From the sequence record SRR2962707_2131: a DNA stretch of 44,239 nucleotides; one strand, 5' to 3'. Under the pieces are notes generated by a model. The model was not told the origin of the DNA and ran no database searches. It was given only the letters and a program-made list of their open reading frames with translations. This document shows positions 7,977 through 39,580 of the stretch, piece after piece (the stretch's first letter is position 1; the number at the start of each line of letters is the position of its first letter). The translations under genes and the position numbers were made by a program.

Positions 7977-9214
7977 GAGGCCGGTGCTCCCTTGCTATCC
8001 GCCAGCTTTACTTTCAGGCCGGTGATCGCATTGGGCAGGTGGGTGGTGATCAGGCGCATGCCCGGTTTCAGGTGTTCACTGGCGATCAACAACCGGCGCT
8101 CGCCATTCTCGCTGAGTGCCTCGCCAACCCGTTGCACCGTCACCCGCTGCATCCTGTTATCATCAGTCATGATGTAAACACTGTCGGCCCCGTACAGTGC
8201 ACTGAAGGGTATGGTAATCAGGTTGTCCCTTGCTGGCCGCTGCAGCAGCAGTGGCTGCAAGGCCCCGGGCCGCAAGGCTCCCGATTCCCCGTTCAGCTCC
8301 AGCACCGCCTCGGTACCGGCCGGATCAGACAGGCCAGCAAACCGGACCAGCTCAAAGCGCTGGCCGGAATCCTCGGTGGTAGCCGTTAGTGTTGCCCCCT
8401 TGGCCAGGGCATCCACCAACTCGCCGAGATACATCTTCGGCACCCGCGCCCGGACTTCCAGCCCCTGTATCGGATAGATGCTCAACAACGCCTGATTGCG
8501 GGATACCTGATCGCCAGCCGCCACTTGCAGGTTGGTGACCATACCGTCAAAAGGCGCTGTTGATACCGCCCGCTCACCGTCCAGTTCTGCCGTGCTCAGA
8601 CTGGCCCGGGCCTGCGACAACCGGGCTTCCAGGCTTTGCAGCCGGGCCGGATGCTCGGCTATGGCCCGCTCCCGGGTACGAACGGTCAACTCCGCCCTGG
8701 CCAGCGCATCGGTGGCAGCCTCAAGGTTCTCGCGGGAGGCCAGGTTGCGCTCAACCAGCGACTGAATGCGCTCAAACTGGCGACGGGCGTTATCCAGGAT
8801 GGCCTTTTCACTCTCCAGGGATCGCTGATCGTTGCGGTATCGCACCTGTTCGGACCGCACCTGCGCCTCCAGGTCGGCGACCTGGGCCCGAGCCTGGGCA
8901 AGTACCGGTTCAATATCGGCGGAATCCAGCGCGACCAGCAAGTCACCTTCGCTCACCTGCTGCCCTTCCCGTACCGGTAACCGGTCAATACGCCCGGCCA
9001 GAGTGGCGGTGATGGTCTGCAGATCCGGCGCCACCACCTCACCATACAGAGGCAACACCGGGGTCGCTCGAGTGGAATTGACCTTCTGCACCTGCACCAG
9101 CCAGCTACGCTCGGTGGCGGATACTTCCGCCGGTTCCGGCCGGGTTGCCTTCAAAAGCAGGAAGCCGGCAATACCCAGGGCGATCATCAACAGGGGAAGC
9201 AGTTTTCTGGACAT
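7973..9214 (-). CDS. RND periplasmic adaptor (membrane fusion protein)
   Basis: N-terminal TM, lipoyl half-motifs (VREGQQVSEGDLL, APFDGMV), long helical hairpin; ATGA overlap with the RND gene. Confidence 0.92.
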   Translation of the reverse strand: MSRKLLPLLMIALGIAGFLLLKATRPEPAEVSATERSWLVQVQKVNSTRATPVLPLYGEVVAPDLQTITATLAGRIDRLPVREGQQVSEGDLLVALDSADIEPVLAQARAQVADLEAQVRSEQVRYRNDQRSLESEKAILDNARRQFERIQSLVERNLASRENLEAATDALARAELTVRTRERAIAEHPARLQSLEARLSQARASLSTAELDGERAVSTAPFDGMVTNLQVAAGDQVSRNQALLSIYPIQGLEVRARVPKMYLGELVDALAKGATLTATTEDSGQRFELVRFAGLSDPAGTEAVLELNGESGALRPGALQPLLLQRPARDNLITIPFSALYGADSVYIMTDDNRMQRVTVQRVGEALSENGERRLLIASEHLKPGMRLITTHLPNAITGLKVKLADSKGAPAS

Positions 9215-9328
9215 GGACAGTAAATACTCTGATTAAATGAAAGTGCGCAAAGACAACGAATTTACTATACAATTTTCAACAGGTTCCGGATTACTCCGGC
9301 AGGTTTCCAGGCTTCAGGATCGACTCCG

Positions 9329-9775
9329 TTGGACGCCACCCACGACACTCTGCTCAACGTCATGCTGCTGAACATTCTTCTGGTGTGCGCTGTTGTAGCA
9401 ATTCATAACGAAGCCCTGATCCGTTTGAGTAGCCTCCTAGGGCGAATGCGGCAAAGCCACCACTTCCGCTTGATCGTCGCAGTGCTCGGCTGCCTTACCG
9501 CCCATGCTCTTCAGGTCTGGATATTTGCCACGGCCTTTTATTTCATGCACCACGCGGATGGCTGGGGCCAGTTGCTTGGCAATTTCAACGGCTCCATGCT
9601 GGACTGTACCTATTTTTCTTTCACAACCTTTACCACCCTCGGCTACGGCGATATTGAAGCCGTTGGCATGCTCCGTCATCTGACCGGCATCGAGGCCCTG
9701 ACAGGGCTGGTCCTGATTACCTGGAGCGCCTCCTTCCTGTTCCTCGAAATGCAGCGCTACTGGCCAACCCGATAG
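9329..9775 (+). CDS. Small potassium channel family protein (pore module only)
   Basis: Pore helix and filter YFSFTTFTTLGYGD flanked by TM helices. Start may be ATG 9362 rather than TTG 9329. Confidence 0.85.
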   Translation: MDATHDTLLNVMLLNILLVCAVVAIHNEALIRLSSLLGRMRQSHHFRLIVAVLGCLTAHALQVWIFATAFYFMHHADGWGQLLGNFNGSMLDCTYFSFTTFTTLGYGDIEAVGMLRHLTGIEALTGLVLITWSASFLFLEMQRYWPTR

Positions 9776-9789
9776 CAAATGACCTGGCG

Positions 9790-12700
9790 TCAAATCCACC
9801 GGCAACGCGCAAGTGTGTAGTACAGAAGCGGAACCACCAGAACGGTCAGCAAAGTGGACATGGCGAGGCCAAAGACCAACGATATCGCCAGGCCATTAAA
9901 AATCGGATCGTTCAGGATAAAGTAAGCACCCACCATCGCTGAAATGGCCGTCAGAGCAATCGGTTTGATGCGGACTGCACCTGCCAGTACCACCGCTTCG
10001 TCCAGTTCTACGCCCTCCTCGATTAACTGCCGGATAAATACCACCAGCAGAATGGAATTGCGCACAATGATGCCGGCCAGGGCAATCATGCCGATCATGC
10101 TGGTGGCGGTGAATTCCCGCCCCAACAGGGCATGGCCGGGCATGATACCGATCATCGTCAGGGGAATGGGCGCCATGATCACCAACGGCAAAATATAGGA
10201 GCGGAACTGGGCCACCAGCAACACGAAGATCATGAAAACCCCCACGCTGTAGGCGGCCCCCATATCCCGAAACGTTTCGTAGGTGATCTGCCATTCGCCG
10301 TCCCATTTCAGGGTGCCTTTTTCCGGCAATGGGGGCTGATCAATGAAATACTGCTCCGGCGCCCACTCCTGTTGGTCCAGACGTTCAACCATCGCAAACA
10401 TGCCATACAACGGTGAATCGATCTCGCCCGCCATATCCGCCGTCACGTAGGTCACCGGCAGCAAATCCTTGTGGTAGATCGCGCCCATCCAGTCGGCCTC
10501 GCGAACATCGGCAATACTCGCCAAAGGAACCAGGTTGCCATCACGACTGCGCACGTTCAGGGATAACAATGCCGCGGGCTGGGCCTTGTCGCCTTCGCTC
10601 AGAATCACACGAATCGGAACCGGGTACTTGGCGTGGTCATCGTGCAGGAAACTGACACTGGTGCCGCCCAGGGCCGTCTGGAGGGCACCGACCACCTGGG
10701 CCTGGGACACGCCAAGCCGTGCCGCGCGGTCCCGATCCACAACCACTTCCCACTGTCGAGTAGGCGCCTCAAGCGTGGTATCGATATCCACCAGACCATC
10801 CACCCGGGTCATGCCCTCGGCCACTTGCCGGGCCAGTTCCGCCCGACGGTTTTCATCCACCGCGTAGATCTCCGCCACCACCGGTGACAATACCGGCGGA
10901 CCGGGCGGCACCTCGACAATCTTGACGCTGGCGCCGTGCTGCTTACCGATCTCGGTCAACGGACCCCGGAGCGACTGGGCAATGGCATGAGACTGCCGTT
11001 CCCGGCGCTCCTCATGAATAAGATTGACCTGGATATCGCCGTGGTAAGGGTCGCCACGCAGGTAGTATTGCCTGACCAGACCGTTGAAATTGATCGGCGA
11101 CGCGGTACCGGCGTAGGTCTGCCAGTTGGCCACTTCATCCACCGTTTCCAGGTAGCGGCCCATTTCCATCAACACCCGCTGGGTCTGCTCCATGGGTGTG
11201 CGCTCCGGCATATCCACCACCACTTGCAGCTCGGACTTGTTGTCGAACGGCAGCATCTTCAGGATCACCGCCTGAAACACCGGTAGCGAGGTGGCGGCCA
11301 GGGTCAGGCCCACCACGCCCAGTGCCAGCACACGGCGCCGCCAGGGATGATCGCCCAGGAAGGGACCGAGCACCGTCCGGAAAATTCGCAGGGACACTGG
11401 ACTGACGCCATCCGCCGAGCTGGAAGCCTCCTCGGCTTCGGCGGCCTGCTCGCCCTTCTTGTGTTTTAGAAGCCTGAAAGCCAGCCAGGGCGCCACCACA
11501 AAGGCAACAATCTGGGACAGTACCATACCGGCCGAGGCGTTGATCGGAATCGGGCTCATGTAGGGCCCCATCAGGCCACTGACAAACGCCATTGGAATCA
11601 GCGCAGCCATGATGGTGAGGCTGGCCATAATGGTGGGGGTGCCCACCTCGTCTACCGCAACGGGAATAATGTCTTTCACCGCCCGCCGGGAGTTCTGGAT
11701 GCGTCGGTTGATGTTCTCGGTGATCACGATGCCATCGTCCACCAGGATGCCGATGGAGAAGATCAGCGCAAACAGGGAGACGCGGTTGAGGGTGAAGCCC
11801 CAGGCCCAGGAGAACACCAGGGTCAGCAGCAGGGTAATCAGCACCGCAATGCCGACAATCAGCGCCTGGCGCCAGCCCATGGCCGCCAGCACCAGCAACA
11901 CAACGCAGAGGGTGGCGGAGATCAAATCGGTTATCAGTTTGCGGGCTTTCTGGGAGGCAGTCACACCATAGTCCCGGGTCACCAGAACCTCCACGGATTG
12001 CGGCAGGGCCCGGTTGCGCAGCTGCGCCAGACGCTCTTCAATGGCCGTGGTGATGTTGATGGCGTTCTCGCCCGGCTTCTTGGCGATGGCCAGGGTGACC
12101 GCCGGGTAAACCTGACCGGGTCGGCCAGCCATGCCGTCCTCATGGGCCGGCCCGAATCCGGTCATCACACTCTGGTCAGCCACAGTGCCTCCGCGGCTAA
12201 CCTCGGCCACATCTTCCAGGTACACCGCAGCGCCGTTTTGCATACCGACCACCAGGCGCCGGACATCCTCCACCGTTTCCAGCAGCGTGCCGGCCTGGAC
12301 CGGTATCGACAGGTTGTCCCGGGTAATCCGGGCTTCCTGGCTGCTGGTGTTGGCCGCCGCCAGGGCGTTACGGATATCGTCGATGGTGAGGTTGAAGCCC
12401 GCCAGCAACGCCGGATCGAACCGGATATCCACCCGATCCGGAGTGCCGCCGGTGGTGTAGACATCCCGGGTACCCGGAACCCTTTTCAGGGCGACTTCCA
12501 GCATATGTGCCAGGCGGGTCAGTTCCTCACCGGTATGTCCGTTGGCCGGGTCGTAGAGGGTAAGCGTCATCACCGGCACATCATCAATGCCCTTGGGTTT
12601 GATCACCGGCTGGGTCGCACCCAGGTTGGCCGGCAGCCAGTCCTGATTGGAGTACACCTGGTTGTAAAGCCGCACCAGGGCTTCCTGCCGTGGGATGCCC

Positions 12701-28174: not shown

Positions 28175-29689
28175 TTATATGCGCGATAATCCCGCTGCAT
28201 CGACCAGGCAATCCCGGCCACCTTCCTTGGCCTGGTAAAGCCGATAATCTGCCCTGGCAATCATTGCCTCCGGGGTGGCCGGCTCGTCGGTCAGCTCCGA
28301 CACACACACCGCCCCGGCACTGACCGTAATGCTTAATTCCTTGCCGTCGACCGACCATTCCTCCTCCCTTACTGCTTCCATGATTCGCATCACCAGGGTT
28401 TGCACATCCCTCTCGGTTACCCCGGTAAAAACCACCAGAAATTCCTCACCCCCGAAGCGGGACACCACATCGGTGGTTCTGGTATGGGCGAGCAGGAGGT
28501 CGGTAAATCGCATCAATACCTGATCGCCTGCCAGGTGGCCCAGGTTGTCGTTTATCCGTTTGAAGTGATCAATATCGAACATGGCGAGGCAGAAACGGTC
28601 ACCATGGCGATTGCTGCCAGCGAGGATCTCGTCCAGCCGGGGCATCAGGTAACGACGGTTATGCAGTCCAGTCAGCGGATCACGAATCGACTGGTTAAGC
28701 AGGTCCTCTTCCAGCCGGTTGCGTTCCAGCGCACCGGACAACAGGCCAGAGACAATAATCAACAGATCCGCCATATCCCGCCGCCAACTCCGCCGGGATA
28801 ACGAATCCACACCAAAGAAGCCCATCACCTGGCCACGGATCCGGACAGGGACGCAGAACATGGAACTGACACCCTGCTGCTCCAGCAATGCCCGCTCGTT
28901 TGCGGCCTCAGGCGGCAAATCCGCAGTATCCTCAATGAACACCACCTTGCTCTGGGCCTCCATCAGGCGGATCTGTTGCTGCCACCAGCGGAAGTCATCA
29001 ATCGGCACCGCCTGCTGATCCACCATCAACGATGGCACGCCCGGGGCACACCATTCGTGGGTATTGGTCATGGTGGCAAAGTCCGGCGAAAAGGCATAGA
29101 CGTAGGCGCGATCAACGCTGAAGAAGTCTCCGATGGATCTGAGCAACTCATCAATGCAATCATCGATGGAGCCAAATCCGAGATGAATGAACTCACTGGA
29201 AAGCCGGGCAATCAGCTTCTGGAAACCCGCCTGGAACGAGAATTCCGCTTCACTATCCCGAAGATGCTGCTCCAGCTCCTTGTAGTGCTGGATGTTGTGG
29301 AACTGGCCATACCAGAGGGTGCTGCCGTCCGGTTGCCGCTCCGGTACTGAATGGGCTTCGTACCATTGGTACTCCCCATTCTTCATCTTCAACCGGGCGC
29401 GGTAACACCAGGGTTGCAGCGTTCGCACCGAGAGCAGGATGCTTTCACCAACGCCAGCCGCATCGTCAGGATGAATGACCCGGAAAACCGAATCGGCATT
29501 TTCCCGGAGCTTTTGCGGCTCGACGCCGAACAGTTCTTTTACCTGGTCGCTGACGTAGGGATAGCGGTGTGACTGGTGATCGGCACTGAGCCAATAGGTA
29601 AACAGCACGCCCGGCACGCCAGATGCCAGCTTCTGAAAAAACCTGGCCGACAGGCTCTCTGGCTGCTCATCGTCGGGCTGGCTTGCCAT
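28175..29689 (-). CDS. PAS-GAF-GGDEF diguanylate cyclase
   Basis: PAS (IHPDD), GAF (THEWCAPGV, GFFGVD), RDPLTGLHNRR, RTTD I-site, GGEEF. Confidence 0.93.
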   Translation of the reverse strand: MASQPDDEQPESLSARFFQKLASGVPGVLFTYWLSADHQSHRYPYVSDQVKELFGVEPQKLRENADSVFRVIHPDDAAGVGESILLSVRTLQPWCYRARLKMKNGEYQWYEAHSVPERQPDGSTLWYGQFHNIQHYKELEQHLRDSEAEFSFQAGFQKLIARLSSEFIHLGFGSIDDCIDELLRSIGDFFSVDRAYVYAFSPDFATMTNTHEWCAPGVPSLMVDQQAVPIDDFRWWQQQIRLMEAQSKVVFIEDTADLPPEAANERALLEQQGVSSMFCVPVRIRGQVMGFFGVDSLSRRSWRRDMADLLIIVSGLLSGALERNRLEEDLLNQSIRDPLTGLHNRRYLMPRLDEILAGSNRHGDRFCLAMFDIDHFKRINDNLGHLAGDQVLMRFTDLLLAHTRTTDVVSRFGGEEFLVVFTGVTERDVQTLVMRIMEAVREEEWSVDGKELSITVSAGAVCVSELTDEPATPEAMIARADYRLYQAKEGGRDCLVDAAGLSRI

Positions 29690-29766
29690 AAATGGCCGGT
29701 CTCCCTGCTATTGTCTACACTGGTTTTTTTAGTGTAGTCCAGCCCGACAGTCGCGGCGAATGCGCT

Positions 29767-30387
29767 TCAAAGGCTATCCAGGCGGGCCTTTGCTTCCGCC
29801 CGACGGCCGGCATCCGCCACTTCCCGACCAGGTCTCGACGGGGCTGCCAACACTTTTTCAAGATAGACCCGGGCCCGTTGAGGCTCGTCCTGCTCCGCCA
29901 GAAAATCTCCAAAGAAGTAATTGGCATCAATACCTTCCGGGTTGATTGCCAGCGATTTCTGCAGGTACTTCCGGGCCATCTCATCATCCCCGAACCCCAA
30001 CGGCCAGCCCGGCACCTGATAATACAGGCTACCCAGCGAGGTATAGGCTGAGCCATCCAGCGCCTCCGGAGCGATCTTCAGGGCCGCTTCCAGGGAGGCG
30101 CGGGCCTCTTTCACCAGCCCCAGCGCACCCAGGCCGCCTTTGGCACCTGCGTAGGTGCTGAGCACAATACCCTGCCAGATCAGCGGTTCGGCACGGCCCG
30201 GATAATCAGCGACAAAGGTCTCGGCCTCTTTGGCCAGTGCCTCAAATGCCTTTTCCTTATCATCGTCTGGCAACTGATACTGGATCTGCGCCCAGCGTTG
30301 CTGGATTTGGGCCAGTTCCGCCTGCATGTCCTGAGCCCACAGGGGCATGGCCATGACCCCCGCCAACACCATTACGATCCACTTCAT
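29767..30387 (-). CDS. Exported TPR-repeat protein
   Basis: Signal peptide MKWIVMVLAGVMAMPLWA; TPR-like helices; AYTSLGSLYYQVPGWPLGFGD. Confidence 0.85.
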   Translation of the reverse strand: MKWIVMVLAGVMAMPLWAQDMQAELAQIQQRWAQIQYQLPDDDKEKAFEALAKEAETFVADYPGRAEPLIWQGIVLSTYAGAKGGLGALGLVKEARASLEAALKIAPEALDGSAYTSLGSLYYQVPGWPLGFGDDEMARKYLQKSLAINPEGIDANYFFGDFLAEQDEPQRARVYLEKVLAAPSRPGREVADAGRRAEAKARLDSL

Positions 30388-31166
30388 GACACCACTCCTG
30401 AATCCAGAAAGCGCCGGATCACCGGCAGTTGTTTTAACATGGCTTTATCCACAAGCTTCGGCAGGATGCCGTTGATCACCACAAACAGTTTTTCCGGCCA
30501 GCCGAGAAAACGTCGGCGTTCATCTTTTTCCATCGCCTGAAGAATCTGGGCTGCGACAGCTTCCGGTGCGTCCATGGCATTGCCCAGGGCACGGTTCAGC
30601 TCGTTCACCGGCGCCGGGTTCATAGCCGTGGCCGTGGCTCTGGGCGCTACGTACACCACCTGCACCGGGGTGTCCGCCAGCTCCCGACGCAGGGCTTCGC
30701 TGAAGCCGCGCAGGCCGAACTTGCTGGCGCAATAGGCGGTGTAGCCGGGAAACCCGATGCTGCCGAAGGTGGACCCCACCAACACCAGGGCGCCCACGCC
30801 GGCTTTACGGAAACGAGGCACAAAATGCCGGGCCACCAGCATAGCGGAACGCAGATTGACCATAAGCTGTGCATCCAGGTCGCTGACGGCCATGGCATCC
30901 AGCGCCGCAAACCGGTTCTGGCCGGCGCAATGAATTACACCATCAATATCGGGATACACCTCACTCAACTGTTGAAGCTGTCGATCCAGCTCCGGGCTGG
31001 CCAGCTCCAGGTGTACCGGAGAAACGCCGGCGCGCTTTTCCAGCCGCTCCGGATGTCGGGTCGCAACGATCATCCGGGCACCGCATTCCACCAGCGGCCC
31101 GATCAGGGCCTGGCCAATGCCACCGGTACCACCCAGCAGCAGGAAGGTACGGTCATGCAGCCTCAT
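30384..31166 (-). CDS. Short-chain dehydrogenase/reductase
   Basis: Start reassigned to MRLHDRT. Gly-rich GGTGGIG, HCAG, catalytic GS...YCASK. Confidence 0.92.
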   Translation of the reverse strand: MRLHDRTFLLLGGTGGIGQALIGPLVECGARMIVATRHPERLEKRAGVSPVHLELASPELDRQLQQLSEVYPDIDGVIHCAGQNRFAALDAMAVSDLDAQLMVNLRSAMLVARHFVPRFRKAGVGALVLVGSTFGSIGFPGYTAYCASKFGLRGFSEALRRELADTPVQVVYVAPRATATAMNPAPVNELNRALGNAMDAPEAVAAQILQAMEKDERRRFLGWPEKLFVVINGILPKLVDKAMLKQLPVIRRFLDSGVVS

Positions 31167-31836
31167 GACGTTGCTCCTTGCCATGGGCCCGCAGCGGAAT
31201 ACTGTGAAGCATATCGCCGTACAGGCGATACACCATGCGCGCGGCCTCGATGATGGCCTGCTGGTCCTCCGGATCGGTGATGTCGTTCATCAGGTTGCGG
31301 AAGAACTCAAAGTGGTCCTGATCCAGGGCGCCGTGAGAGTACAGATAACTGAACGCCTGATTGGGCAGGCCCAGCTGTTTCTGGATGGCTTCACCCAGGG
31401 GCGTGGCCAGCTCAATGGAGGTGCCCTCCAGCACCTGAACCATGCCAAAAAAAGCCGCCGGGTTACCCCGCTGGATGCGGTCATACAGGTAGGCCACCAT
31501 CAACTCGATGGAGGTATCGGGCTGGCCATGACGAATGGCTTCCTTGTCTTCGCCGCAGGCTTCAAGGTCGTTGAGAATCCACTCGTGGTGGCCGTATTCT
31601 TCCTCGATGTATTCCACCAGTGCCTTGCGCACGAATTCCAGCCGTTCGGGCAGCCGGCCACCACAGGCCATCATCAGTGGCACGGTGTGCTTCACGTGGT
31701 GATAGGCCTGGGTCAGGAACCAGGTGTAACCCTCAAGATCAAAGCGACCCTCGCGGATAGCCTGAATCACCGGGGCTCCGGTGACATGGGCCCGGGCCTG
31801 TTCAGTTTCGGATTGCAGTCGGTCAAAAAATGCCAT
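31153..31836 (-). CDS. Heme-oxygenase-like diiron oxidase (TenA/PqqC/CADD family); internal in-frame start within the fused ORF
   Basis: Own SD (CAGGAG-N8-ATG) before MAFFDRL; candidate ligands EEEYGH, VLEG and HGALDQDH (H-x3-D-x2-H). Confidence 0.75.
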   Translation of the reverse strand: MAFFDRLQSETEQARAHVTGAPVIQAIREGRFDLEGYTWFLTQAYHHVKHTVPLMMACGGRLPERLEFVRKALVEYIEEEYGHHEWILNDLEACGEDKEAIRHGQPDTSIELMVAYLYDRIQRGNPAAFFGMVQVLEGTSIELATPLGEAIQKQLGLPNQAFSYLYSHGALDQDHFEFFRNLMNDITDPEDQQAIIEAARMVYRLYGDMLHSIPLRAHGKEQRHEAA

Positions 31837-33345
31837 GTTTGAGTCTCCTGGCGTTGTCTGTCGGATAGAAGTGCCCGCAGGCACTGAGAGATTCATGAAT
31901 AAGGGAAAGGATTCGGCCATGAGCCTGGGCAGGTCCGCCTGAATCTGGTGCCGCACCGGGCGACCGTTGGCCGTGATGTGGCCCTCGGCCTGGGTCAGCC
32001 GTTGCCGGCGCAGGTACACGGCCTGCAAGCGGGCATAATCCGGCAAACCGGCATTCAGCAACGTCAGGGCCGCACGTATATCGTCAGGGCTTCGGTTATC
32101 CGTGATCACCACCAAAGCACCGGGTTGTGGCTCACCATCGCCAAATACCACAGCCTGAGCAGCCCCCAATGCCTGGACCAGTTCACTTTCCAGCCATTCC
32201 GGGCTGATGTTCCGACCAAAGCTGGTAATCAACAGGTTCTTTGCCCGACCGTTGATAGCCAGAAAGCCCTCTGTGTCCTGGTCGCCCAGATCGCCGGTAT
32301 CGAGCCAGTCATCGGCTTGCGGCTCATCACCGAGATATCCCAGATGGGTATTGCCCCGAACCAGAATCCGGTGTTCGTTATCCACCTTTACCTGCACATG
32401 CCCCAGGGGCCGGCCCACCGAGCCTTCTCGCTCGGCTCCGGGCACGTTCAGCGCCACCACCGAGCCACATTCAGACAAACCGTAGCCCTCGTACAGAGGC
32501 AACCCAATCGACCGTCCCCGGGCCAACAGGTCCGGCGATACCCGGCCGCCGCCGACCGCCAGGAAGCGAAACGAATCCGTTGTCAGCAATCCCTGCTCGC
32601 CGGCATTGACCAGCGCCATCGCCAGCTCAGGCACCAGAATCACGGAATGGGGGTGATGCCGGTTCAGGCCGGCCACCAGCTGGCCGAGATCGAGGCCACT
32701 GCTGCCGGTCATGCCCAGGGTCTGCAACGGGGCAACCGTCACCGTGGCGCCCATCAGCAGGGGCAGGTAAACCCCGGCAATGTTCTCCAGCAGGGTTGCC
32801 AGCGGCAGAATGCACAGGTGTTGCTCCAGCTCCACACCTTCCAGCCGCTGCTGCAGCGCACCGGCGGTCGCCGCCAGCTGCTGCGCCGACAGGCACACGC
32901 CCTTGGGGGTACCAGTACTGCCGGAGGTGAAGGTAATCTTGGCGGTGTGTTCCGGCATCCAGGAGGCAGCAGGGGACACCGGCAAATGTCTCAGCCAGAC
33001 GCCATGACCGATCATCTCCGCCTGTTCTGCTTCGCCACTGAATACCAGGGCATCCAGCCCGGCCCGCTGAATCAGGTGCTCGGTCTGGCTTCTGGAAAAA
33101 AACACCGGCACCGGTACACACACCACGTCCGCCATCAGACAAGCCAGGTCCGCAACCAACCAGGCCGGGGTGTTGTCGCCACACAGGCCTATGCGTTTCA
33201 CGCCCAGGCTCCGCAACTGCTCGGCCACCAACTGCGCCGCCCGCCATAGCTGCTGATAACTGAAACTGGCGTCTGGCCCCTGCAGTGCAATGCGCTCCGG
33301 ATGTTGCCGGACCCGCTGAGACAGGAGATCAGGCAAGGCGGCCAT
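31153..33345 (-). CDS. AMP-binding (acyl-CoA ligase-like) protein fused in frame to a TenA/CADD-like diiron domain
   Basis: Start MAALPD with GGAGG SD. ANL motifs FTSGSTGTPKG, YEGYGLSE, DTGDLG, GRAKN. No stop codon before the heme-oxygenase-fold domain. Confidence 0.85.
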   Translation of the reverse strand: MAALPDLLSQRVRQHPERIALQGPDASFSYQQLWRAAQLVAEQLRSLGVKRIGLCGDNTPAWLVADLACLMADVVCVPVPVFFSRSQTEHLIQRAGLDALVFSGEAEQAEMIGHGVWLRHLPVSPAASWMPEHTAKITFTSGSTGTPKGVCLSAQQLAATAGALQQRLEGVELEQHLCILPLATLLENIAGVYLPLLMGATVTVAPLQTLGMTGSSGLDLGQLVAGLNRHHPHSVILVPELAMALVNAGEQGLLTTDSFRFLAVGGGRVSPDLLARGRSIGLPLYEGYGLSECGSVVALNVPGAEREGSVGRPLGHVQVKVDNEHRILVRGNTHLGYLGDEPQADDWLDTGDLGDQDTEGFLAINGRAKNLLITSFGRNISPEWLESELVQALGAAQAVVFGDGEPQPGALVVITDNRSPDDIRAALTLLNAGLPDYARLQAVYLRRQRLTQAEGHITANGRPVRHQIQADLPRLMAESFPLFMNLSVPAGTSIRQTTPGDSNMAFFDRLQSETEQARAHVTGAPVIQAIREGRFDLEGYTWFLTQAYHHVKHTVPLMMACGGRLPERLEFVRKALVEYIEEEYGHHEWILNDLEACGEDKEAIRHGQPDTSIELMVAYLYDRIQRGNPAAFFGMVQVLEGTSIELATPLGEAIQKQLGLPNQAFSYLYSHGALDQDHFEFFRNLMNDITDPEDQQAIIEAARMVYRLYGDMLHSIPLRAHGKEQRHEAA

Positions 33346-34039
33346 AGGCACCTCCCAGGTCCGCCTGCGGTTTATCCTCGACCGCAACAACCGGCTGCAC
33401 CAGCTTCAGCAAGCCGGCGGCGCGCAAGGCCGCCATACCATCAGCGACCTTGATGGTCATCACCACCGGATGATGGTCGTAATAGCGACCCCAACCAGCG
33501 CCGCCATCCGGCAATTTTGAAGGGTCGGCATCCGCCAGCACCTGCGTGGCGATGCCGAGCCGATGGAAACTGTTGCGCAACTGGTCGGTACCGGTACACA
33601 CCACCCAGTCATAGCCGGCAGCATCCAACCACACTGAGAGCGAGGCGAACAGATAGCGGCTGACCCCGGCTTCCACCCCGGCCAGGTGGGCAATTTCGGC
33701 AATACCGCTGCGCCTTGTTCCCGGTTCCGGCATCAGGGTTTGCACCGGAACCGACAGATAGTCCTCCAGAAACAGGGTGTCAGTCGCAGCATTTCGGACA
33801 CCGACCGCGGCCATCAGGCTGCCCTGGGCCGTAGTCAAGGCGAGCAGGGAGGGGATACGCAGGTTCGGTTCGGCGCCGTAAGCTTGCTGAAAGCGGCGGC
33901 GAATGAAGGCCGCAACGCTCTCCGCCATCCCTGTACCAGGCACGATTTCACTGAACCACCGTCCGGCGCAACGAAGCAATGGTACGACATCTGGAGCGTC
34001 CGGCGGACAACAAGCAGAAATGGTCAGCGGATCAGTCAT
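33329..34039 (-). CDS. 'Thermostable hemolysin' (delta-VPH-like) family protein, predicted acyltransferase-like fold
   Basis: FIRRRFQQAYGA, AAVGVR, LFLEDYL, IAEIAHLA, WVVCTGT, WGRYYDHHP; first gene of the operon. Confidence 0.85.
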   Translation of the reverse strand: MTDPLTISACCPPDAPDVVPLLRCAGRWFSEIVPGTGMAESVAAFIRRRFQQAYGAEPNLRIPSLLALTTAQGSLMAAVGVRNAATDTLFLEDYLSVPVQTLMPEPGTRRSGIAEIAHLAGVEAGVSRYLFASLSVWLDAAGYDWVVCTGTDQLRNSFHRLGIATQVLADADPSKLPDGGAGWGRYYDHHPVVMTIKVADGMAALRAAGLLKLVQPVVAVEDKPQADLGGAYGRLA

Positions 34040-34089
34040 CAGGGTTCTCCAACAGCCAGGGCCAGGCTGGCCCTCTGGTCACGGCTGCC

Positions 34090-34122
34090 AGATTAGGTGG
34101 AGAGTCTTAACCCATCCTTAAG
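34090..34122 (-). promoter_or_regulatory. PmrA/QseB-type box promoter of the hemolysin operon
   Basis: Minus strand CTTAAG-GATGG-GTTAAG-N10-TAATCT. Confidence 0.75.
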
Positions 34123-34138
34123 GCAGTGTCGGAGATTT

Positions 34139-34171
34139 CTTAAGCCCGCGTTAAGCTTTCTGTGGCACACT
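34139..34171 (+). promoter_or_regulatory. PmrA/QseB-type box promoter (autoregulation of the two-component system)
   Basis: CTTAAG-CCCGC-GTTAAG-N10-CACACT. Confidence 0.72.
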
Positions 34172-34201
34172 CGCCAGGATCACATTTAGCAGGAACCATC
34201 C

Positions 34202-34888
34202 ATGCGCATACTGTTGGTGGAGGACGACCATCCACTTGCCCGCACAATGCTGGACATGCTCCGGCAGGACCAACATACGGTCGACTGGCTCGACGACGGC
34301 CAGCAGGCTTTGACGGCGCTGAAGCAAGACCATTTTGACCTGGTCATACTTGACCTGACTTTACCCCGGCTCGATGGCCTCGATGTTCTCCGGGGCGCAA
34401 GGCAGGCCGGGAACCACACACCCGTGATCATTCTGACCGCTCGCACCGAACTGGATGAAAAGCTCCTGGGCCTTGATGCCGGGGCGGACGACTACCTGAC
34501 CAAACCTTTCGCCATGGCCGAACTGAAAGCCCGGATGCGTGCAATAACCCGGCGCGGGGCTTCTACCAGCGGCGATGCCGAGCTTCAGGTGGGGCAAATA
34601 AAACTGAATACCGATACCGGCCAGCTTGTGGCAGGTGGCGAAACATCCGTACTGCCTCGCAGCGAGTTCCAGATTCTTCACTACCTGATGCGACACCCCG
34701 GACAGGTTGCCACGCGCCGGCGCCTGGAAGAACAGCTCTACGGTTGGGATTCGGGCGCTGAAAGCAACGCTCTGGAAGTACACATTCACCACCTTCGCCG
34801 CCGGATCGGCAAGCCCCTCATACGCACCATTCGTGGCGTCGGCTACGTTCTGGATCCCGAGGCGGCGGGGGCATCCGCATGTCGCTGA
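34202..34888 (+). CDS. OmpR-family response regulator (PmrA/QseB-like)
   Basis: MRILLVEDD, LDLTLP, GADDYLTKPF, SNALEVHIHHLRRRIG, IRTIRGVGY. Confidence 0.93.
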   Translation: MRILLVEDDHPLARTMLDMLRQDQHTVDWLDDGQQALTALKQDHFDLVILDLTLPRLDGLDVLRGARQAGNHTPVIILTARTELDEKLLGLDAGADDYLTKPFAMAELKARMRAITRRGASTSGDAELQVGQIKLNTDTGQLVAGGETSVLPRSEFQILHYLMRHPGQVATRRRLEEQLYGWDSGAESNALEVHIHHLRRRIGKPLIRTIRGVGYVLDPEAAGASACR

Positions 34889-36300
34889 CTCGCACGTTAA
34901 CGCTTCTGGTTACCTCGACAGTGCTCCTGATCGCACTGATCGCCTCCCTCTGGAGTTATATCGAGAGCAATCACGAGCTGGAGGAACTGTTCGATGCCGA
35001 GCTTGCCCAAAGCACACGCATTGTACAGGGGCTGGTTCGCCATCTGGTGGACACCCAGGCCATTGAGCAGTTGCCGGCAACCCTGAGCGAGACCCTGACG
35101 CTGCCACTTGATCCTGCGGTTGAACTTGACCTGGAAGCCGATGAAGACGAAATCCTGCCCGGCGGGGTTGGACACAAATATGAGAAGAAACTGGCGTTTG
35201 AAGTGTGGACGCCAGAAAGAGAACCCCTGCTGGACACCCTGAACTCGGATGACAATCTGGGACTGGCTCCCGGTTATTCCTGGGCAGAATCACGCGGCCA
35301 TCGCTGGCGCACCTTTACCCTGCAGGATCCGGAAACCGGATTCTGGATACGCACCGCACAACGGGAAGACATTCGAGGCGAACTCAGTCAGGAACTGGCA
35401 CTCGGGAACGTACTGCCATTAATTCTGGCGTTACCGCTGCTACTCGTGGCAGTGATCGTCGCCGTTCAACTCGGGTTCCGCCCCCTCGCCAGGCTGGAGA
35501 AACCCATCCGACATATGGCGCCGGAGCGTATACATCCGCTCGACGACCGACAGGCACCAAAGGAAGTCGCTGGCCTGGTTCAGGCGGTGAACACCTTGCT
35601 CCGACGCCTTGACCTGGCCCTCGAGCGCGAACGGCGGTTTTCCGCCGATGCGGCTCACGAGTTGCGCACCCCCCTCGCAGCCTTGCGTCTCAATCTGGAG
35701 CGGGCCTGTACGGAACATCCGGAATTGTCGCAGGACCTGATCCAATCCGTCGATCGCATGGTGCACCTGGTTGAGCAGATGCTGCTACTCAATCGCGTGG
35801 ACTCCGGCATTGACTTCGTCCCGACCCGGAACAACCTGTCGGCGATCCTTGAACAGAGCGTTGCCGACGTTGCCCCCCTGGCACTGAAGAAACAGATTGA
35901 CCCCGTACTGGAGGATAATACCGATCAGGCAATGGTTCAGTGCCATAGTGCCCTGATCAATACCCTGATGCGCTCCCTGCTCGCCAACGCCATACAGTAC
36001 AGTCCACGGAACACTGTCATCCTGACCCGCCTGGTCGCTGAGGGCGATGGCTACAGCATCTCTGTCTGCGATCAGGGCCCGGGCATTGGCGCTGGGGAAC
36101 GAGAGCGCGCCCTCAGTCGCTTTGTCCGTCTGGATCAACGCCAGGGAGGCGGCGCCGGGCTTGGACTTGCCATCGCTCGCCGGATTGCCGAACTGCATGG
36201 CGGTCATCTGGTTCTGTCAGACCGGCCAGACGGTGGTTCCGGCCTGTGCGTCCGGGTCTGGCTACCCACCAGTTACCGATGCGAGCAGCACCGGCGTTAA
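34879..36300 (+). CDS. Sensor histidine kinase (PmrB/QseC-like)
   Basis: TM1, HELEELFDAELAQ, TM2 plus HAMP, H-box ADAAHELRTPL, DQGPGI, GAGLGLAI. Confidence 0.92.
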   Translation: MSLTRTLTLLVTSTVLLIALIASLWSYIESNHELEELFDAELAQSTRIVQGLVRHLVDTQAIEQLPATLSETLTLPLDPAVELDLEADEDEILPGGVGHKYEKKLAFEVWTPEREPLLDTLNSDDNLGLAPGYSWAESRGHRWRTFTLQDPETGFWIRTAQREDIRGELSQELALGNVLPLILALPLLLVAVIVAVQLGFRPLARLEKPIRHMAPERIHPLDDRQAPKEVAGLVQAVNTLLRRLDLALERERRFSADAAHELRTPLAALRLNLERACTEHPELSQDLIQSVDRMVHLVEQMLLLNRVDSGIDFVPTRNNLSAILEQSVADVAPLALKKQIDPVLEDNTDQAMVQCHSALINTLMRSLLANAIQYSPRNTVILTRLVAEGDGYSISVCDQGPGIGAGERERALSRFVRLDQRQGGGAGLGLAIARRIAELHGGHLVLSDRPDGGSGLCVRVWLPTSYRCEQHRR

Positions 36301-36384: not shown

Positions 36385-37152
36385 ATGCCACGGCAACCGA
36401 CCCTTTCACTGGTCATACCTGCAAAAGACGAACAGGACAACATCGCTGCGCTGCTGACGGAGGCGTTTACCGTCATGCGCGACTATCCAGAATTTGAAAT
36501 TGTGCTCGTCGATGATGGCAGCAACGACCGAACGCTGGAGACTGCCCGTCGCACAGCCGCAGTGCTCAACGGCAACCTGAACGCAGTTCGACATACCCAC
36601 AGCATTGGCCAGAGCGGAGCACTGGCCACGGGCATACGCCAAGCCCGAGGTCAATGGATCGCCACCATGGATGGCGACGGCCAGAACGACCCTGCCGACA
36701 TCCCGGCATTGTTGCAAAAAGCCAGCAGCGTGAACCAACAAGATTTCTGTATTGCCGGTTACCGTCGGAACCGGAAAGACACGCCATGGAAACGCTTTCA
36801 GTCACGACTTGCCAACCGCATTCGCAATGCGTTTCTACATGACGGAGTGCCAGACACGGGATGTGGTCTGAAACTGTTCCCTCGCGCCACTTTTCTCAAG
36901 CTGCCCTGGTTCGACCACGCCCACCGCTTCATTCCCGCACTGGTAAAGGGGCTGGGGGGCGACATTGCCGTTGTTGAAGTCAATCATCGGCCACGCACCG
37001 CAGGGGTATCAAAATACAATGCCTGGAACCGCGCCTGGGCCGGCATTGTCGATATGATCGGCGTTCTGTGGCTGCTTCACCGCACACGGGTGCCCCGGAT
37101 CGCGAGCGTCGCAGAAAACGCCGACGAACAACCCATCACCGATCATGCATGA
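36385..37152 (+). CDS. GT2 polyprenyl-phosphate glycosyltransferase (ArnC/DPM1-like)
   Basis: SLVIPAKDE, VDDGSND, GQSGAL, TMDGDGQNDPADIP, DTGCGLK, HRFIPAL, HRPRTAGVSKY. Confidence 0.92.
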   Translation: MPRQPTLSLVIPAKDEQDNIAALLTEAFTVMRDYPEFEIVLVDDGSNDRTLETARRTAAVLNGNLNAVRHTHSIGQSGALATGIRQARGQWIATMDGDGQNDPADIPALLQKASSVNQQDFCIAGYRRNRKDTPWKRFQSRLANRIRNAFLHDGVPDTGCGLKLFPRATFLKLPWFDHAHRFIPALVKGLGGDIAVVEVNHRPRTAGVSKYNAWNRAWAGIVDMIGVLWLLHRTRVPRIASVAENADEQPITDHA

Positions 37153-37822
37153 TATGACCACGGTTTTTCGCTGGCTGGTCCTTATCAGCCTGCTTGTTGC
37201 CGGCTATTTCGCCATCAACGGACACTGGCTCGGGCTCATCACCGACCAGGTAAGTGTCGCCAACTTCCTGCAAAGGTATGGATGGCCAGGAGTTGCCGCA
37301 ATCACCCTGCTCGGCGCACTGTTCACCGGATTTGGCGCCCCCCGGCAAGCACTCGCCTTTATCCTTGGTTTTGCCAGCGGCAGCGTGGAAGGTGCAGTCA
37401 TTTCGACGCTTGCCACCGCCCTTGGCGCAACTGGCTGCTTTTACGCCGCCCGGTGGCTACTCCGGGCACCACTCATACACCGTTTTGAACTTCGCATGCA
37501 GCGCTTCGACAGCCTGTTCACGGAAGGCACCCTGCTCAAAATCCTCATGATCAGGCTGTTGCCGGTAGGCAGCAATCTTGTCACCAACCTCCTCGCCGGG
37601 TGTTCCGGGATACGATTCGTCCCGTTTTTTTGGGGCAGCGTTCTTGGCTACCTGCCCCAGATGGTGATCTTTGCAATGGCCGGCGCAGGGATTGGCCAGG
37701 CCCGTCTTGACCAGCTTGTGGTAAGCGCGGTTCTGTTCGCGCTGGCAAGTGCCATTGGCGCTTACCTGTATCACAACCAGCGCAATCAGACCCTTGCTGA
37801 TTCCGTATCTGACTCCTCCTGA
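37145..37822 (+). CDS. TVP38/TMEM64 (VTT/DedA superfamily) membrane protein
   Basis: GAPRQALAF, IRLLPVGSNLVTNLLAG, FFWGSVLGYLPQ. Confidence 0.88.
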   Translation: MHDMTTVFRWLVLISLLVAGYFAINGHWLGLITDQVSVANFLQRYGWPGVAAITLLGALFTGFGAPRQALAFILGFASGSVEGAVISTLATALGATGCFYAARWLLRAPLIHRFELRMQRFDSLFTEGTLLKILMIRLLPVGSNLVTNLLAGCSGIRFVPFFWGSVLGYLPQMVIFAMAGAGIGQARLDQLVVSAVLFALASAIGAYLYHNQRNQTLADSVSDSS

Positions 37823-37831
37823 GTTGCAATT

Positions 37832-39580
37832 ATGACACTCGACTTCCGTCTTCGGCGTTTACCCGACACCTTATTCAATCTGCCGTACAATCAATTGTTA
37901 CTGGTGGTACTGGCCTTCGCGGCACTCATGATTCTGACCGGCATCGGGTTACGCTCTCCGTGGCCCGCCGACGAACCGCGATTCGCCGAAGTGGCCCGGG
38001 AAATGGTGACCTCCGGGCAATGGCTGCTGCCGATGCGGGGCGGCGAACTCTACCCGGACAAACCACCGGTGTTCATGTGGGCCATTGCCTTTTTCTACTG
38101 GCTGACCGGCAACCTGAAAATCGCGTTTCTACTGCCGAACGCCCTGTGCAGCGTGCTAACACTGGGCCTGGTGTTCGATCTTGGCACACGCTTGTGGAAT
38201 CAACGTACGGGCACCATCGCCGCATTGCTGCTGATGCTGACGCCCCAGTTCCTGATTCAGGCCCAGCGAGCCCAGATTGATGCCATGGTGGCCTGCTGGA
38301 TCATGGTGGCCTGTTACGGTCTGATCCGGCATTTTTTCGTGCAGCCGTCCTGGCGTTGGTATTTCGTGGCCTGGGCCTTTATGGGGCTTGGCATTATTAC
38401 CAAAGGGGTTGGCTTTCTGCCCGCCTTGCTGTTCATTCCGATACTGGCCCTGAAACTGCAGGACACTTCTCGGTTTCAGGGCACACTCCGCTGGCGCTGC
38501 GCCATCGGGCCCCTGGTCATGCTGGCCGTTGTGGCAGCCTGGCTGGTGCCGATGGTTCTGACCGTCAGTCACCTCGGCACCGACGAGGCCCTGGCCTATC
38601 GCGACAACATTCTGTTCAAACAGACCGGTGAGCGCTATGCCGATTCCTGGGGGCACATTCAGCCCTGGTATTACTACCTCGCCAGCGTGATTCCCTCGCT
38701 GTGGTTCCCTCTGCCGCTGCTATTCCTGGCACTGCTGCGGCCCATTCGTGAGATTCTCAAACACAGGCTGGACGTGGTGGTTCTGCTGGCATGGATCGTG
38801 TTGGTGGTGACGTTTTTCAGCCTGAGCCCGGGCAAACGCGGAGTCTATGTGCTCCCGGCTTTGCCGGCACTGGCCCTGAGCCTGGCCCCGGCATTGAGTG
38901 GACAAAACCCGGCACGCTGGTTCGGGGCGGTCATCAGTGTTCTGCATCTGCTGCTAGGTGCAGCCTTGGTCATCCTGGGCGTGCTAGCCTGGCATGACCA
39001 CCCTCGTCTGGTGGAAAAGGTCGCTGACTACACTCAGGATCCGGCTCGACTGCACGAAGCCGGCACCCTGTTGTTCACCCTTGGGGTTGTCTGGGTCGCA
39101 AGTCTCATGGCGCTCTGGCGCTGCCGGGCACTCGGGCGCTGGTTCATTGCCCTGATGGTGAGTTGGCTGGTGTTCACAACCTGGGGTTATCGGATTCTCG
39201 AGCCATTGCGCACACCCAGAAATGTGCTCGCCGCAGCCGAGCAGTTCGTACCTGCCGACGGGCAGATTGGCATGATCAATTTCCGGGAACAGTTCATTCT
39301 GTTTTCAAAGCGGGACTTTACCCATTTCAGTTACTTCAGCGACAGGGAACAGGAAAGCCGCAACGCATGGCTCTGGATGCGGGAGACACCGGATAGCTAT
39401 TTAATGGTGGCTGAAGACGGGGAGCTTGGCTGTTTCAATAAACAGGGGGCCCGACCGCTGGGCACCGCTCACCGGGATACCTACGTGCTGCTGAGCGACC
39501 AGGACATGAAGGACAGCTGTGCCCCCCCGGACGAGGTGACACGCTTTACCACCGACAACCCCGGGGAGTGGCTGGACTGA
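37832..39580 (+). CDS. ArnT/GT39-family glycosyltransferase
   Basis: PADEPRFAEVAREM, YPDKPPVFMW, QIDAM, ITKGVG, HIQPWYYY, GKRGVYVLP. Confidence 0.92.
   Translation: MTLDFRLRRLPDTLFNLPYNQLLLVVLAFAALMILTGIGLRSPWPADEPRFAEVAREMVTSGQWLLPMRGGELYPDKPPVFMWAIAFFYWLTGNLKIAFLLPNALCSVLTLGLVFDLGTRLWNQRTGTIAALLLMLTPQFLIQAQRAQIDAMVACWIMVACYGLIRHFFVQPSWRWYFVAWAFMGLGIITKGVGFLPALLFIPILALKLQDTSRFQGTLRWRCAIGPLVMLAVVAAWLVPMVLTVSHLGTDEALAYRDNILFKQTGERYADSWGHIQPWYYYLASVIPSLWFPLPLLFLALLRPIREILKHRLDVVVLLAWIVLVVTFFSLSPGKRGVYVLPALPALALSLAPALSGQNPARWFGAVISVLHLLLGAALVILGVLAWHDHPRLVEKVADYTQDPARLHEAGTLLFTLGVVWVASLMALWRCRALGRWFIALMVSWLVFTTWGYRILEPLRTPRNVLAAAEQFVPADGQIGMINFREQFILFSKRDFTHFSYFSDREQESRNAWLWMRETPDSYLMVAEDGELGCFNKQGARPLGTAHRDTYVLLSDQDMKDSCAPPDEVTRFTTDNPGEWLD

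Follow-up and report, generated by a model that had tools for sequence, protein, structure and literature searches.

The "thermostable hemolysin" operon of Marinobacter as a candidate acyl-transfer pathway linked to a two-component system

The hemolysin operon and its conservation

We analyzed a stretch of 44,239 nucleotides from sequence record SRR2962707_2131 (the whole stretch is called the window), in which an operon headed by a gene of the "thermostable hemolysin" family lies on the minus strand, divergent from the genes of a two-component system. The host of this 44-kb window is Marinobacter; the hemolysin-family protein shows 99% identity to its counterpart in Marinobacter sp. S0848L and 98% to the one in M. 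nauticus DSM 50418. As listed in Table 1, the minus-strand open reading frames (ORFs) at 29767-34039 form four overlapping genes with five modules, namely the hemolysin-family protein, an adenylate-forming (ANL) ligase fused to a heme-oxygenase-like diiron oxidase (HDO), a short-chain dehydrogenase/reductase (SDR), and an exported tetratricopeptide repeat (TPR) protein; the ORF list and the Pfam and NCBIfam assignments agreed exactly with the four ORFs and five modules described in the initial annotation. Along the operon the ORFs overlap by 62, 32, and 4 nt, the first overlap shrinking to 17 nt should translation of the ligase begin at the ATG at 33345 (codon 16) and not at the other candidate, the TTG at 33390. 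These overlapping ORFs match the layout expected of one operon. Our analysis indicates that the hemolysin-family protein is very likely an enzyme within a biosynthetic pathway. The explanation that we favor, by a modest balance of probability, is a conserved, self-regulated acyl-transfer pathway that activates an acyl group, hydroxylates or otherwise oxidizes it, and transfers it to give an amphiphilic amide, with no protein toxin involved.

Species representatives of GTDB were scanned with a 14-sequence hemolysin alignment, and the best 80 of 323 confirmed relatives were analyzed; gene content was counted in the 77 of those 80 loci that extend at least 3.9 kb 3' of the hemolysin gene. In 77/77 loci, the genes for the ligase, HDO, and SDR follow the hemolysin gene in the same order, so the genes initially assigned to one pathway are also conserved together, and because this order is repeated in every sufficiently long related locus, the arrangement of the operon is not due to chance. 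The 77 loci span the Gamma-, Beta-, and Zetaproteobacteria, with Pseudomonas, Thauera, Propionivibrio, Methylobacillus, Sulfuriferula, and a Burkholderiaceae metagenome-assembled genome among the taxa included. The TPR gene was found in 65/77 loci. Fusion of the ligase and HDO is seen in 50/60 Marinobacter/Salicola loci and 0/17 others, and HDO is a separate gene in most other taxa. The same fusion also occurs in Novosphingobium pentaromativorans, and its presence in both Marinobacter and Novosphingobium argues for direct functional coupling of the two activities. On plasmid pLA3 of N. pentaromativorans (L083, 7519-14489), the cluster is followed by genes for an S-adenosylmethionine (SAM) methyltransferase, an ECF sigma factor, a FecR-domain protein, and a TonB-dependent receptor, with no two-component system in that place.

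Independently annotated contexts came from plasmid records, of which eleven were opened and ten are annotated. The five-gene set is present in 6/10 annotated plasmids (Citrobacter, Pantoea, V. parahaemolyticus, Variovorax, Novosphingobium, and Salinivibrio). In 2/10, from Acinetobacter haemolyticus and Streptomyces, a TauD/TfdA dioxygenase takes the place of HDO, as if a non-orthologous enzyme had taken over the oxygenase step; the exchange of one O2-dependent iron enzyme for another suggests that this step is a hydroxylation-type oxidation. The gene for this Fe/2-oxoglutarate dioxygenase follows those of the hemolysin-family protein and ligase at 10054-10983 in Streptomyces (L082) and at 11460-12293 in A. 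haemolyticus (L091).

Table 1. Features of the hemolysin operon and of the divergent genes in the window
Feature	Position	Strand	Assignment and remarks
T_hemolysin-family protein, 236 aa	33329-34039	minus	PF12261, E 1.5e-52; predicted LuxI/FeeM-like GNAT-fold acyltransferase
Ligase-HDO fusion protein, 745 aa	31153-33390	minus	AMP-binding + AMP-binding_C_3 + Haem_oxygenas_2
ANL ligase domain, residues ~1-500 of fusion	31891-33390	minus	AMP-binding, E 4.4e-53; AMP-binding_C_3
HDO domain, residues 519-745 of fusion	31153-31836	minus	PF14518, E 1.1e-33
Classical SDR, 266 aa	30384-31184	minus	adh_short, E 4.7e-31; NF006565
Exported TPR protein, 206 aa, TatT/BstC-like	29767-30387	minus	TPR families (Pfam)
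Regulator box 1, CTTAAG-N5-GTTAAG	34106-34122	minus	Faces hemolysin operon, 67 nt 5' of its ATG
Regulator box 2, CTTAAG-N5-GTTAAG	34139-34155	plus	Faces response-regulator gene, 47 nt 5' of its ATG
OmpR-family response regulator, PmrA/QseB-like	34202-34888	plus	Response_reg + Trans_reg_C; divergent from operon
Sensor histidine kinase, PmrB/QseC-like	34879-36300	plus	HisKA, HATPase_c, 2CSK_N
ArnC-like GT2, DedA/VTT protein, ArnT-like PMT_2 glycosyltransferase	36385-39580	plus	Pfam, NCBIfam; 3' of kinase

Predicted folds and activities of the encoded proteins

The hemolysin-family protein matches PF12261 with 178.3 bits against a cutoff of 27, as do 137/137 aligned relatives, and the family comprises 1615 clusters at 50% identity (E <= 0.001). 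An AlphaFold2 model built from the 137-sequence alignment reached a pLDDT of 91.4 and a pTM of 0.87. When this model was compared with the PDB by Foldseek, the top matches were the acyl-homoserine lactone (AHL) synthases TofI (E 2.5e-7), MesI, LasI, EsaI, RpaI, and BjaI together with FeeM. The superposition on TofI gave a TM score of 0.53 when normalized to the query and 0.66-0.71 when normalized to the target; FeeM, at rank 5, gave 0.54 and 0.68, respectively. The siderophore transacylase SidF and the acyltransferase domain of NcdE were also matched, and among the matches listed (139 PDB matches at E <= 0.001), all are GNAT-type acyltransferases or GNAT-fold proteins. Five residues (Y94, E115, G184, Y186, and P191) are invariant in the 137-sequence alignment, and in the model E115 lies on the central strand 113-121, which we take to correspond to the strand with the catalytic glutamate in LuxI, FeeM, and the commendamide synthase ChoA. 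A weak neighbor by language model (score 0.91) is a cluster in which 12% of the members carry Pfam FeeM. These models predict that the hemolysin-family protein has a LuxI/FeeM-like fold without belonging to either sequence family. The acyltransferase fold put forward in the initial annotation was thus recovered by structure prediction, and the GNAT-type fold and the metabolic partner genes support its suspicion that the hemolysin label hides an enzyme.

Inspection of the protein by eye revealed no N-terminal hydrophobic segment, signal peptide, or membrane segment, and the predicted fold is that of a compact globular GNAT enzyme in which no amphipathic or pore-forming features were seen. By these features, the protein does not fit a secreted or pore-forming protein hemolysin; no export signal was seen, and the predicted GNAT fold is not of a lytic type.

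Within the fusion protein, Pfam places AMP-binding at residues 24-347 and AMP-binding_C_3 at residues 386-482. The closest PDB and NCBIfam relatives of the ligase are MenE and fatty-acyl-CoA ligases, all under their family cutoffs, and no NCBIfam equivalog cutoff was reached. The core motifs TSGSTGxPKG, EGYGLSE, and A8-like GRAKN...G.NI.P are kept in 29/29 aligned ligases. Adenylating enzymes normally carry a catalytic lysine at motif A10. By eye, a putative A10 motif was located toward the C-terminal end of the ligase domain (31891-32100) as T-x-N/T-G-R-x-x-R in 28/29 ligases and as T-G-N-N-R in the remaining one (L073); the alignments to solved ligases end before this motif, and the equivalence of Arg to Lys was judged by eye alone.

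The Haem_oxygenas_2 match (PF14518) covers residues 557-724 of the fusion protein, whose C-terminal 227 residues are 49-96% identical across classes. All of the motifs quoted in the initial annotation are present in the fusion, EEEYGH at residues 596-601, LEG at 654-656, and H-x3-D-x2-H at 686-693, and the six ligands that they supply, E598 and H601 (ExxH), E655, H686, D690, and H693, are invariant in 31/31 aligned homologues. The AlphaFold2 model of the domain (pLDDT 89.6) was matched by Foldseek to CtCADD (TM 0.81-0.82, rmsd 2.4), 3dde (TM 0.79), and UndA (TM 0.65-0.69), and a profile of the domain found 3dde (4e-22) and CADD (6e-5) in the PDB; 3dde (Sden_3740), which is ~24% identical to HDO, is itself uncharacterized. 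By its predicted fold and its ligands, HDO belongs to the heme-oxygenase-like dimetal oxidases, with the seven-helix fold and the ExxH...E...HxxxDxxH ligands of the Chlamydia p-aminobenzoate (pABA) synthase CADD, of 3dde, and of UndA, none of which is fused to an ANL ligase. CADD sacrifices its own Tyr27, which lies within the peptide HMLEHTFYVK (PMC9522330). In the HMMER alignment of the homologues, Tyr27 pairs with position 24 of the HDO domain, which is I, V, F, M, or L and never Tyr. The earlier description of the domain as CADD-type therefore holds for fold and ligands and does not extend to the mechanism. A CADD-type self-sacrificing pABA synthase was rejected; the equivalent of Tyr27 is not Tyr, and no folate genes adjoin the operon.

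The third gene encodes, on the basis of its sequence, a classical SDR. It scores 338 bits against the NF006565 cutoff of 238 and contains the motifs GGTGGIG and S...YCASK, and the solved proteins closest to it are FabG-type 3-oxoacyl reductases and a (3R)-hydroxyacyl-CoA dehydrogenase. The N terminus of the TPR protein (MKW, a hydrophobic stretch, and LWA|QD) reads, by eye only, as a Sec signal peptide; it is hydrophobic in 22/22 aligned homologues, with A18 almost invariant, and 46 columns are invariant among these 22 sequences. In a profile search, the best natural PDB relative was BstC (7t1s, E 1.3e-8), and the NCBIfam match to BstC is weak (E 4e-8 to 2e-11, 33-44 bits against a cutoff of 350). 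Pfam TAtT is likewise weakly matched by three TPR homologues (22.7-26.8 bits against a cutoff of 26.5), and the TPR protein of the window has no match to it at E <= 0.01. The sterol-binding BstC and the TRAP T-component TatT thus appear to be the best natural relatives of this protein, both through weak matches.

The two-component system and its DNA boxes

The nearest families of the divergent two-component system are PmrAB and QseBC. The response regulator scored 216.6 against the NCBIfam cutoff of 330 for PmrA and 211.7 against 345 for QseB, and the kinase scored 218.9 against 314 for PmrB and 206.5 against 475 for QseC. All four scores lie below the equivalog cutoffs, and a PmrAB or QseBC orthologue was rejected; these sub-cutoff scores mark the system as a paralogue of PmrAB/QseBC. 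In the kinase, hydrophobic segments at residues ~6-28 and 173-200 enclose a periplasmic domain of ~145 aa.

A close homologue of the two-component system is linked to the operon in 66/80 loci. It is divergent in Marinobacter and co-directional and downstream in eight others. In P. brassicacearum, the hemolysin, TPR, regulator, and kinase genes belong to a compact row of seven that starts with the hemolysin gene and ends with the kinase gene, with three overlapping junctions, a gap of 11 nt between the TPR and regulator genes, and unrelated genes on both sides; Salinivibrio has the same layout. In Thauera phenolivorans (L072, 13558-14217), the regulator gene that follows the operon is split into two ORFs, which a frameshift or an error in sequencing could explain.

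The 162-bp divergent intergenic region contains two copies of CTTAAG-N5-GTTAAG, 33 bp apart and one directed toward each operon. These are the sole matches in the window, where shuffled sequences gave an expectation of 0. The direct-repeat box resembles what we take to be the PmrA box, YTTAAK-N5-YTTAAK. Among the Marinobacter loci, the half-sites are conserved and the spacers are variable; the same 11-bp-periodic repeat lies 5' of the hemolysin gene in other Gamma- and Betaproteobacteria, and its form in Pseudomonas is CTTCAG-N5-STTMAG. A relaxed pattern (CTTAAG-N5-NTTAAG type) was present in 74/77 upstream windows, as compared with 2/224 control windows of equal size inside operons, the box-negative upstream windows being those of L071, L076, and L080. 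We consider it probable that the regulator acts via these CTTAAG boxes. A promoter and terminator scan of 29400-34400 gave no signal above the shuffled background and none in the intergenic region.

The trio of ArnC-like GT2, DedA, and ArnT-like genes 3' of the kinase gene is present in 27/62 Marinobacter/Salicola loci, and L017 has GT2 and DedA alone. Outside Marinobacter/Salicola, GT2 only was found, in 1/18 loci. The three genes are probably co-regulated envelope-glycosylation genes that are specific to the Marinobacter lineage. The initial annotation had placed the operon under envelope-stress control. The part of this claim that concerns control held up well, in that a PmrAB/QseBC-like system is linked to the operon and the boxes are conserved; the stress itself is only suggested by the type of regulator and by the ArnC-like, DedA, and ArnT-like neighbors, which are confined to Marinobacter, and several genomic contexts point to iron or redox as the signal.

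In 21/62 Marinobacter/Salicola loci (e.g. L007 at 6860-9440, L009, L019, L047, and L062), an insertion of ~3 kb separates the regulator gene from the hemolysin gene. It carries a second GT2 gene and a weakly ArnT-like gene, and the region upstream of the hemolysin gene then has three boxes, not two.

The proposed pathway and its alternatives

The pathway that we propose builds on computed folds, ligands, gene linkage, and boxes, from which we infer the steps of a mechanism. The kinase would phosphorylate the regulator upon a periplasmic signal, with iron or some other envelope cue as the foremost candidate, and the regulator would bind the boxes and turn on both the operon and its own genes. 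The ligase would activate a carboxylic acid, probably a fatty acid, to the acyl-AMP or acyl-CoA. HDO, or the TauD-type dioxygenase in its place in some taxa, would hydroxylate or otherwise oxidize the acid or the acceptor, and the SDR would interconvert the hydroxyl and keto groups so formed. The LuxI/FeeM-like enzyme would then move the acyl group onto an amine acceptor, releasing an amphiphilic N-acyl compound into the membrane or periplasm, where the TatT/BstC-like TPR protein may bind the hydrophobic product or, alternatively, talk to the kinase. Amidase genes that adjoin the cluster in two taxa would fit the metabolism of an amide product. Tentatively, and with somewhat less confidence than in the pathway as a whole, we suggest that the product may be an N-acyl lipid that acts on membranes and not a dedicated signal or chelator. 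Among product classes, a membrane lipid would be our first choice, a signal the boldest reading, and a metal-related compound a third option.

Support by analogy comes from ChoA of the Bacteroidales, which is annotated as a hemolysin, has been modeled on LasI, and makes N-acyl-3-hydroxypalmitoyl-glycine (commendamide); its hemolysis is due to this product and not to the purified protein, and an acidic residue on its catalytic strand is essential (PMC5643525). With this precedent, the historical "thermostable hemolysin" phenotype would be accounted for by a heat-stable product with surfactant-like properties. The commendamide synthase (ChoA/GlsB) shares the LasI-like fold and the hemolysin label with the protein of the window, whereas it belongs to another sequence family with a COG3176-type ELGRSFV motif (PMC5643525), takes endogenous 3-hydroxyacyl groups as donors, and lacks any ligase, HDO, SDR, TPR, or two-component partner. 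The LuxI-type AHL synthases (TofI, LasI, and EsaI and the CoA-dependent RpaI, BjaI, and MesI) are the best structural matches, and RpaI, BjaI, and MesI take ligase-made acyl-CoA, which the ligase of the operon could supply likewise; unlike in these systems, no LuxR-type receptor is present here. FeeM, an N-acyl amino acid synthase from soil environmental DNA, shares the GNAT/LuxI-like fold and works with an acyl carrier protein, whereas the operon encodes none.

The envelope remodeling controlled by PmrAB/BasRS- and QseBC-type systems (e.g. CarRS/VprAB-almEFG of V. cholerae) resembles the present case in the nearest models of the two-component system, the likeness of the box, and the ArnC-like, DedA, and ArnT-like genes, and differs from it in that the target operon here encodes soluble cytoplasmic enzymes and no lipid A transferase. 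In P. aeruginosa, spermidine genes lie ahead of pmrAB. AlmEFG provides a precedent for an adenylating enzyme and an acyltransferase under a PmrAB-like system (PMC4278540).

Several observations weigh against the favored pathway. The structural similarity of the hemolysin-family protein to its matches is moderate, with TM scores of 0.44-0.55 (query-normalized) or 0.52-0.71 (target-normalized) overall and an identity of 10-16%. None of the 137 family members matches Pfam Autoind_synth at E up to 1, Pfam FeeM (PF21926) is matched weakly by 1/137 (E 0.12), and a search of the PDB with the 137-sequence profile returned no acyltransferase or AHL synthase and one irrelevant match (E 0.68), as a search with the single hemolysin sequence had returned 0 matches. 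A LuxI-type AHL synthase by sequence family was rejected on the Autoind_synth and profile results. With Arg at its putative A10 motif, the ligase may have atypical chemistry. The module encodes neither a carrier protein nor an exporter. The TPR gene was not detected after the SDR gene in 12/77 loci (L011, L014, L028, L029, L031, L036, L037, L040, L061, L066, L071, and L072), and seemingly it has been lost rather than diverged in L011, L014, L040, and L061 because the next gene begins too early for one. A strict match to the two-component system is missing in 14/80 loci, some of which are cut short by contig ends, and the hemolysin gene has no neighboring ligase gene in 2/10 annotated plasmids, those of Methylosinus and Photobacterium damselae. 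Finally, the hemolysis by cloned Vibrio genes that Taniguchi in 1990 and Fallarino in 2002 are said to have described could be a real activity of the protein.

The Marinobacter operon is evidently the same cluster as the dth/delta-VPH region of Vibrio. In V. cholerae, dth is VCA1111 (PMC6474259) and the ligase gene beside it is VCA1110, named DthC (PMC12208996). In V. parahaemolyticus, the region is VP1729-VP1735, and STRING connects VP1729 (hemolysin) with VP1731 (iron-containing redox enzyme) and VP1735 (QseC-like kinase) (PMC10469919), and in Pseudoalteromonas carrageenovora PCAR9_p0005-p0014 comprises QseBC, a high-affinity iron transporter, an acyl-CoA synthetase, and the hemolysin, a "potential virulence cluster" found in 24 genomes (PMC6262041). 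These clusters share with the Marinobacter operon a thermostable hemolysin, an acyl-CoA-synthetase-like gene, an iron-containing redox enzyme, and a QseC-like kinase. The published readings are those of a hemolysin or virulence cluster or of a STRING association, and the clusters differ from the Marinobacter operon in that Marinobacter has a ligase-oxidase fusion and that their two-component system lies downstream rather than divergent. Our literature search found no acyltransferase fold, pathway, or product for this family, the founding Vibrio hemolysis reports being outside its scope; the remark in the initial annotation that no product was known for the pathway is in keeping with this result.

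We weighed four other explanations. In one, which we regard as unlikely, the module is a closed signaling circuit in which the LuxI-fold synthase and its tailoring enzymes make a diffusible signal, the TPR protein acts as the receptor that presents it to the kinase, and the boxes give positive feedback of the quorum-sensing kind. In its favor, AHL synthases are the best structural matches, among them the CoA-dependent enzymes that act after CoA ligases; the synthase, TPR protein, regulator, and kinase are joined in one unit of seven genes in Pseudomonas, Salinivibrio, and several uncultured Gammaproteobacteria; the placement of the boxes suits autoregulation; and the conservation of the TPR protein is unusual for a repeat scaffold. 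However, 12/77 loci keep the enzymes and lose the TPR gene, Novosphingobium has the ECF sigma/FecR/TonB-receptor set as its regulator instead, two plasmid copies have no adjacent two-component system, and there is no LuxI sequence-family match. The broader proposition that the seven-gene unit represents a new and widespread class of self-contained chemical-signaling or metal-sensing circuits in the Proteobacteria, including Vibrio, is doubtful to a similar degree; if the circuit were real, "thermostable hemolysin" genes would be autoinducer-like synthases, and HDO would carry out a new reaction on an acyl-CoA or acyl-adenylate passed within the fused enzyme. Improbable, in our view, is a role in metallophore synthesis or iron/redox homeostasis, in which the oxidase would make a chelating group, the acyltransferase would complete it in the manner of IucB or SidF, and the sensor would answer to iron. 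PmrB-type sensors respond to Fe3+, SidF and the NcdE domain are among the structural matches, and iron- or redox-related genes accompany the cluster in several taxa, namely the Novosphingobium set just mentioned, a siderophore receptor in A. haemolyticus, a VIT-family iron transporter in Pantoea, cytochrome b561-type neighbors in 3/10 annotated contexts, and the high-affinity iron transporter of Pseudoalteromonas (PMC6262041). These neighbors are anecdotal, however; they differ among taxa, and none lies beside the operon in the Marinobacter window. An exporter or a dedicated uptake system is not conserved across the loci, the TauD-type replacement of HDO favors C-hydroxylation over N-oxygenation, and the SDR has no obvious role in hydroxamate assembly.

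Quite improbable is also the detoxification of an incoming organic acid by CoA ligation and subsequent amino-acid conjugation by the GNAT-fold enzyme, with the oxidase and SDR being catabolic. A ligase paired with a GNAT-fold N-acyltransferase is the architecture of the mammalian glycine-conjugation pathway (PMC8003330, PMC12509317), a two-component sensor would suit the response to an external compound, and amidase genes lie next to the cluster in both Streptomyces and P. brassicacearum; against this stand the strict five-gene order kept across distant classes, the dedicated periplasmic TPR protein, the lack of a conserved uptake transporter, and the biosynthetic look of the Streptomyces version, which sits among secondary-metabolite-like genes next to a gamma-butyrolactone system. 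We assign a very small probability to the existing annotation being correct, that is, to a heat-stable, membrane-damaging hemolysin or virulence factor whose neighbors are unrelated or accessory. The T_hemolysin family was named after the cloned Vibrio hemolysins delta-VPH and Dth, Vibrio surveys count dth/delta-vph as a marker of virulence (PMC6474259), and the Pseudoalteromonas cluster was termed a potential virulence cluster. The article that used this term also calls the thermostable hemolysin of V. alginolyticus characterized and toxic to zebrafish, citing Jia 2010 (B35; PMC6262041), but Jia 2010 by its title concerns the thermolabile hemolysin TLH, a different and unrelated protein. The predicted compact cytoplasmic GNAT-type fold, with its invariant acidic residue on the catalytic strand and no signal peptide seen, argues against a toxin; moreover, marine, soil, and iron-oxidizing bacteria that are not pathogens commonly carry members of the family, and the protein is tied to metabolic partner genes in 77/77 loci (we speak of four partners).

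If the favored acyl-transfer pathway is correct and the product of the acyltransferase is what lyses cells, "thermostable hemolysin" annotations and the virulence inferences drawn from them in Vibrio need revision. The pathway combines a LuxI/FeeM-fold enzyme with a diiron oxidase of the heme-oxygenase-like type, and the fusion of the oxidase to an adenylating ligase in two distant lineages indicates chemistry that would be new to the HDO superfamily. The module is carried by Proteobacteria both from the environment and from hosts, among them Marinobacter, Pseudomonas, Vibrio, Pantoea, Citrobacter, and iron oxidizers, and its own sensor, regulator, and recognizable DNA boxes make induction of the pathway and a hunt for the metabolite approachable.

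The surroundings of the cluster showed further features. In the window, a gene for a PAS-GAF-GGDEF diguanylate cyclase (28175-29689, minus strand) begins 77 bp 3' of the TPR gene. It is found in many Marinobacter loci (e.g. L002) and not in the closest relative (L001), where a gene for an MBL-fold protein directly follows the TPR gene with no diguanylate cyclase gene between. A gene for a cytochrome b561 or b/b6-domain protein adjoins the hemolysin gene in 3/10 annotated plasmids, those of V. parahaemolyticus, Pantoea, and Salinivibrio (L084 7251-7799, L085 7442-8026, and L089 7294-7803). The iron transporter gene of Pantoea directly follows the TPR gene, and the siderophore receptor of A. haemolyticus, which is TonB-dependent, is encoded 3 kb from the cluster. 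The amidase-signature-family gene of Streptomyces (L082, 6328-7848) lies on the same strand as the hemolysin gene and overlaps it, and that of P. brassicacearum (L069, 7987-9738) is divergent from it. The locus titled Leclercia tamurae, chromosome N4 (L067), is, including its upstream non-coding DNA, almost identical to that of P. brassicacearum, and its label may not fit.

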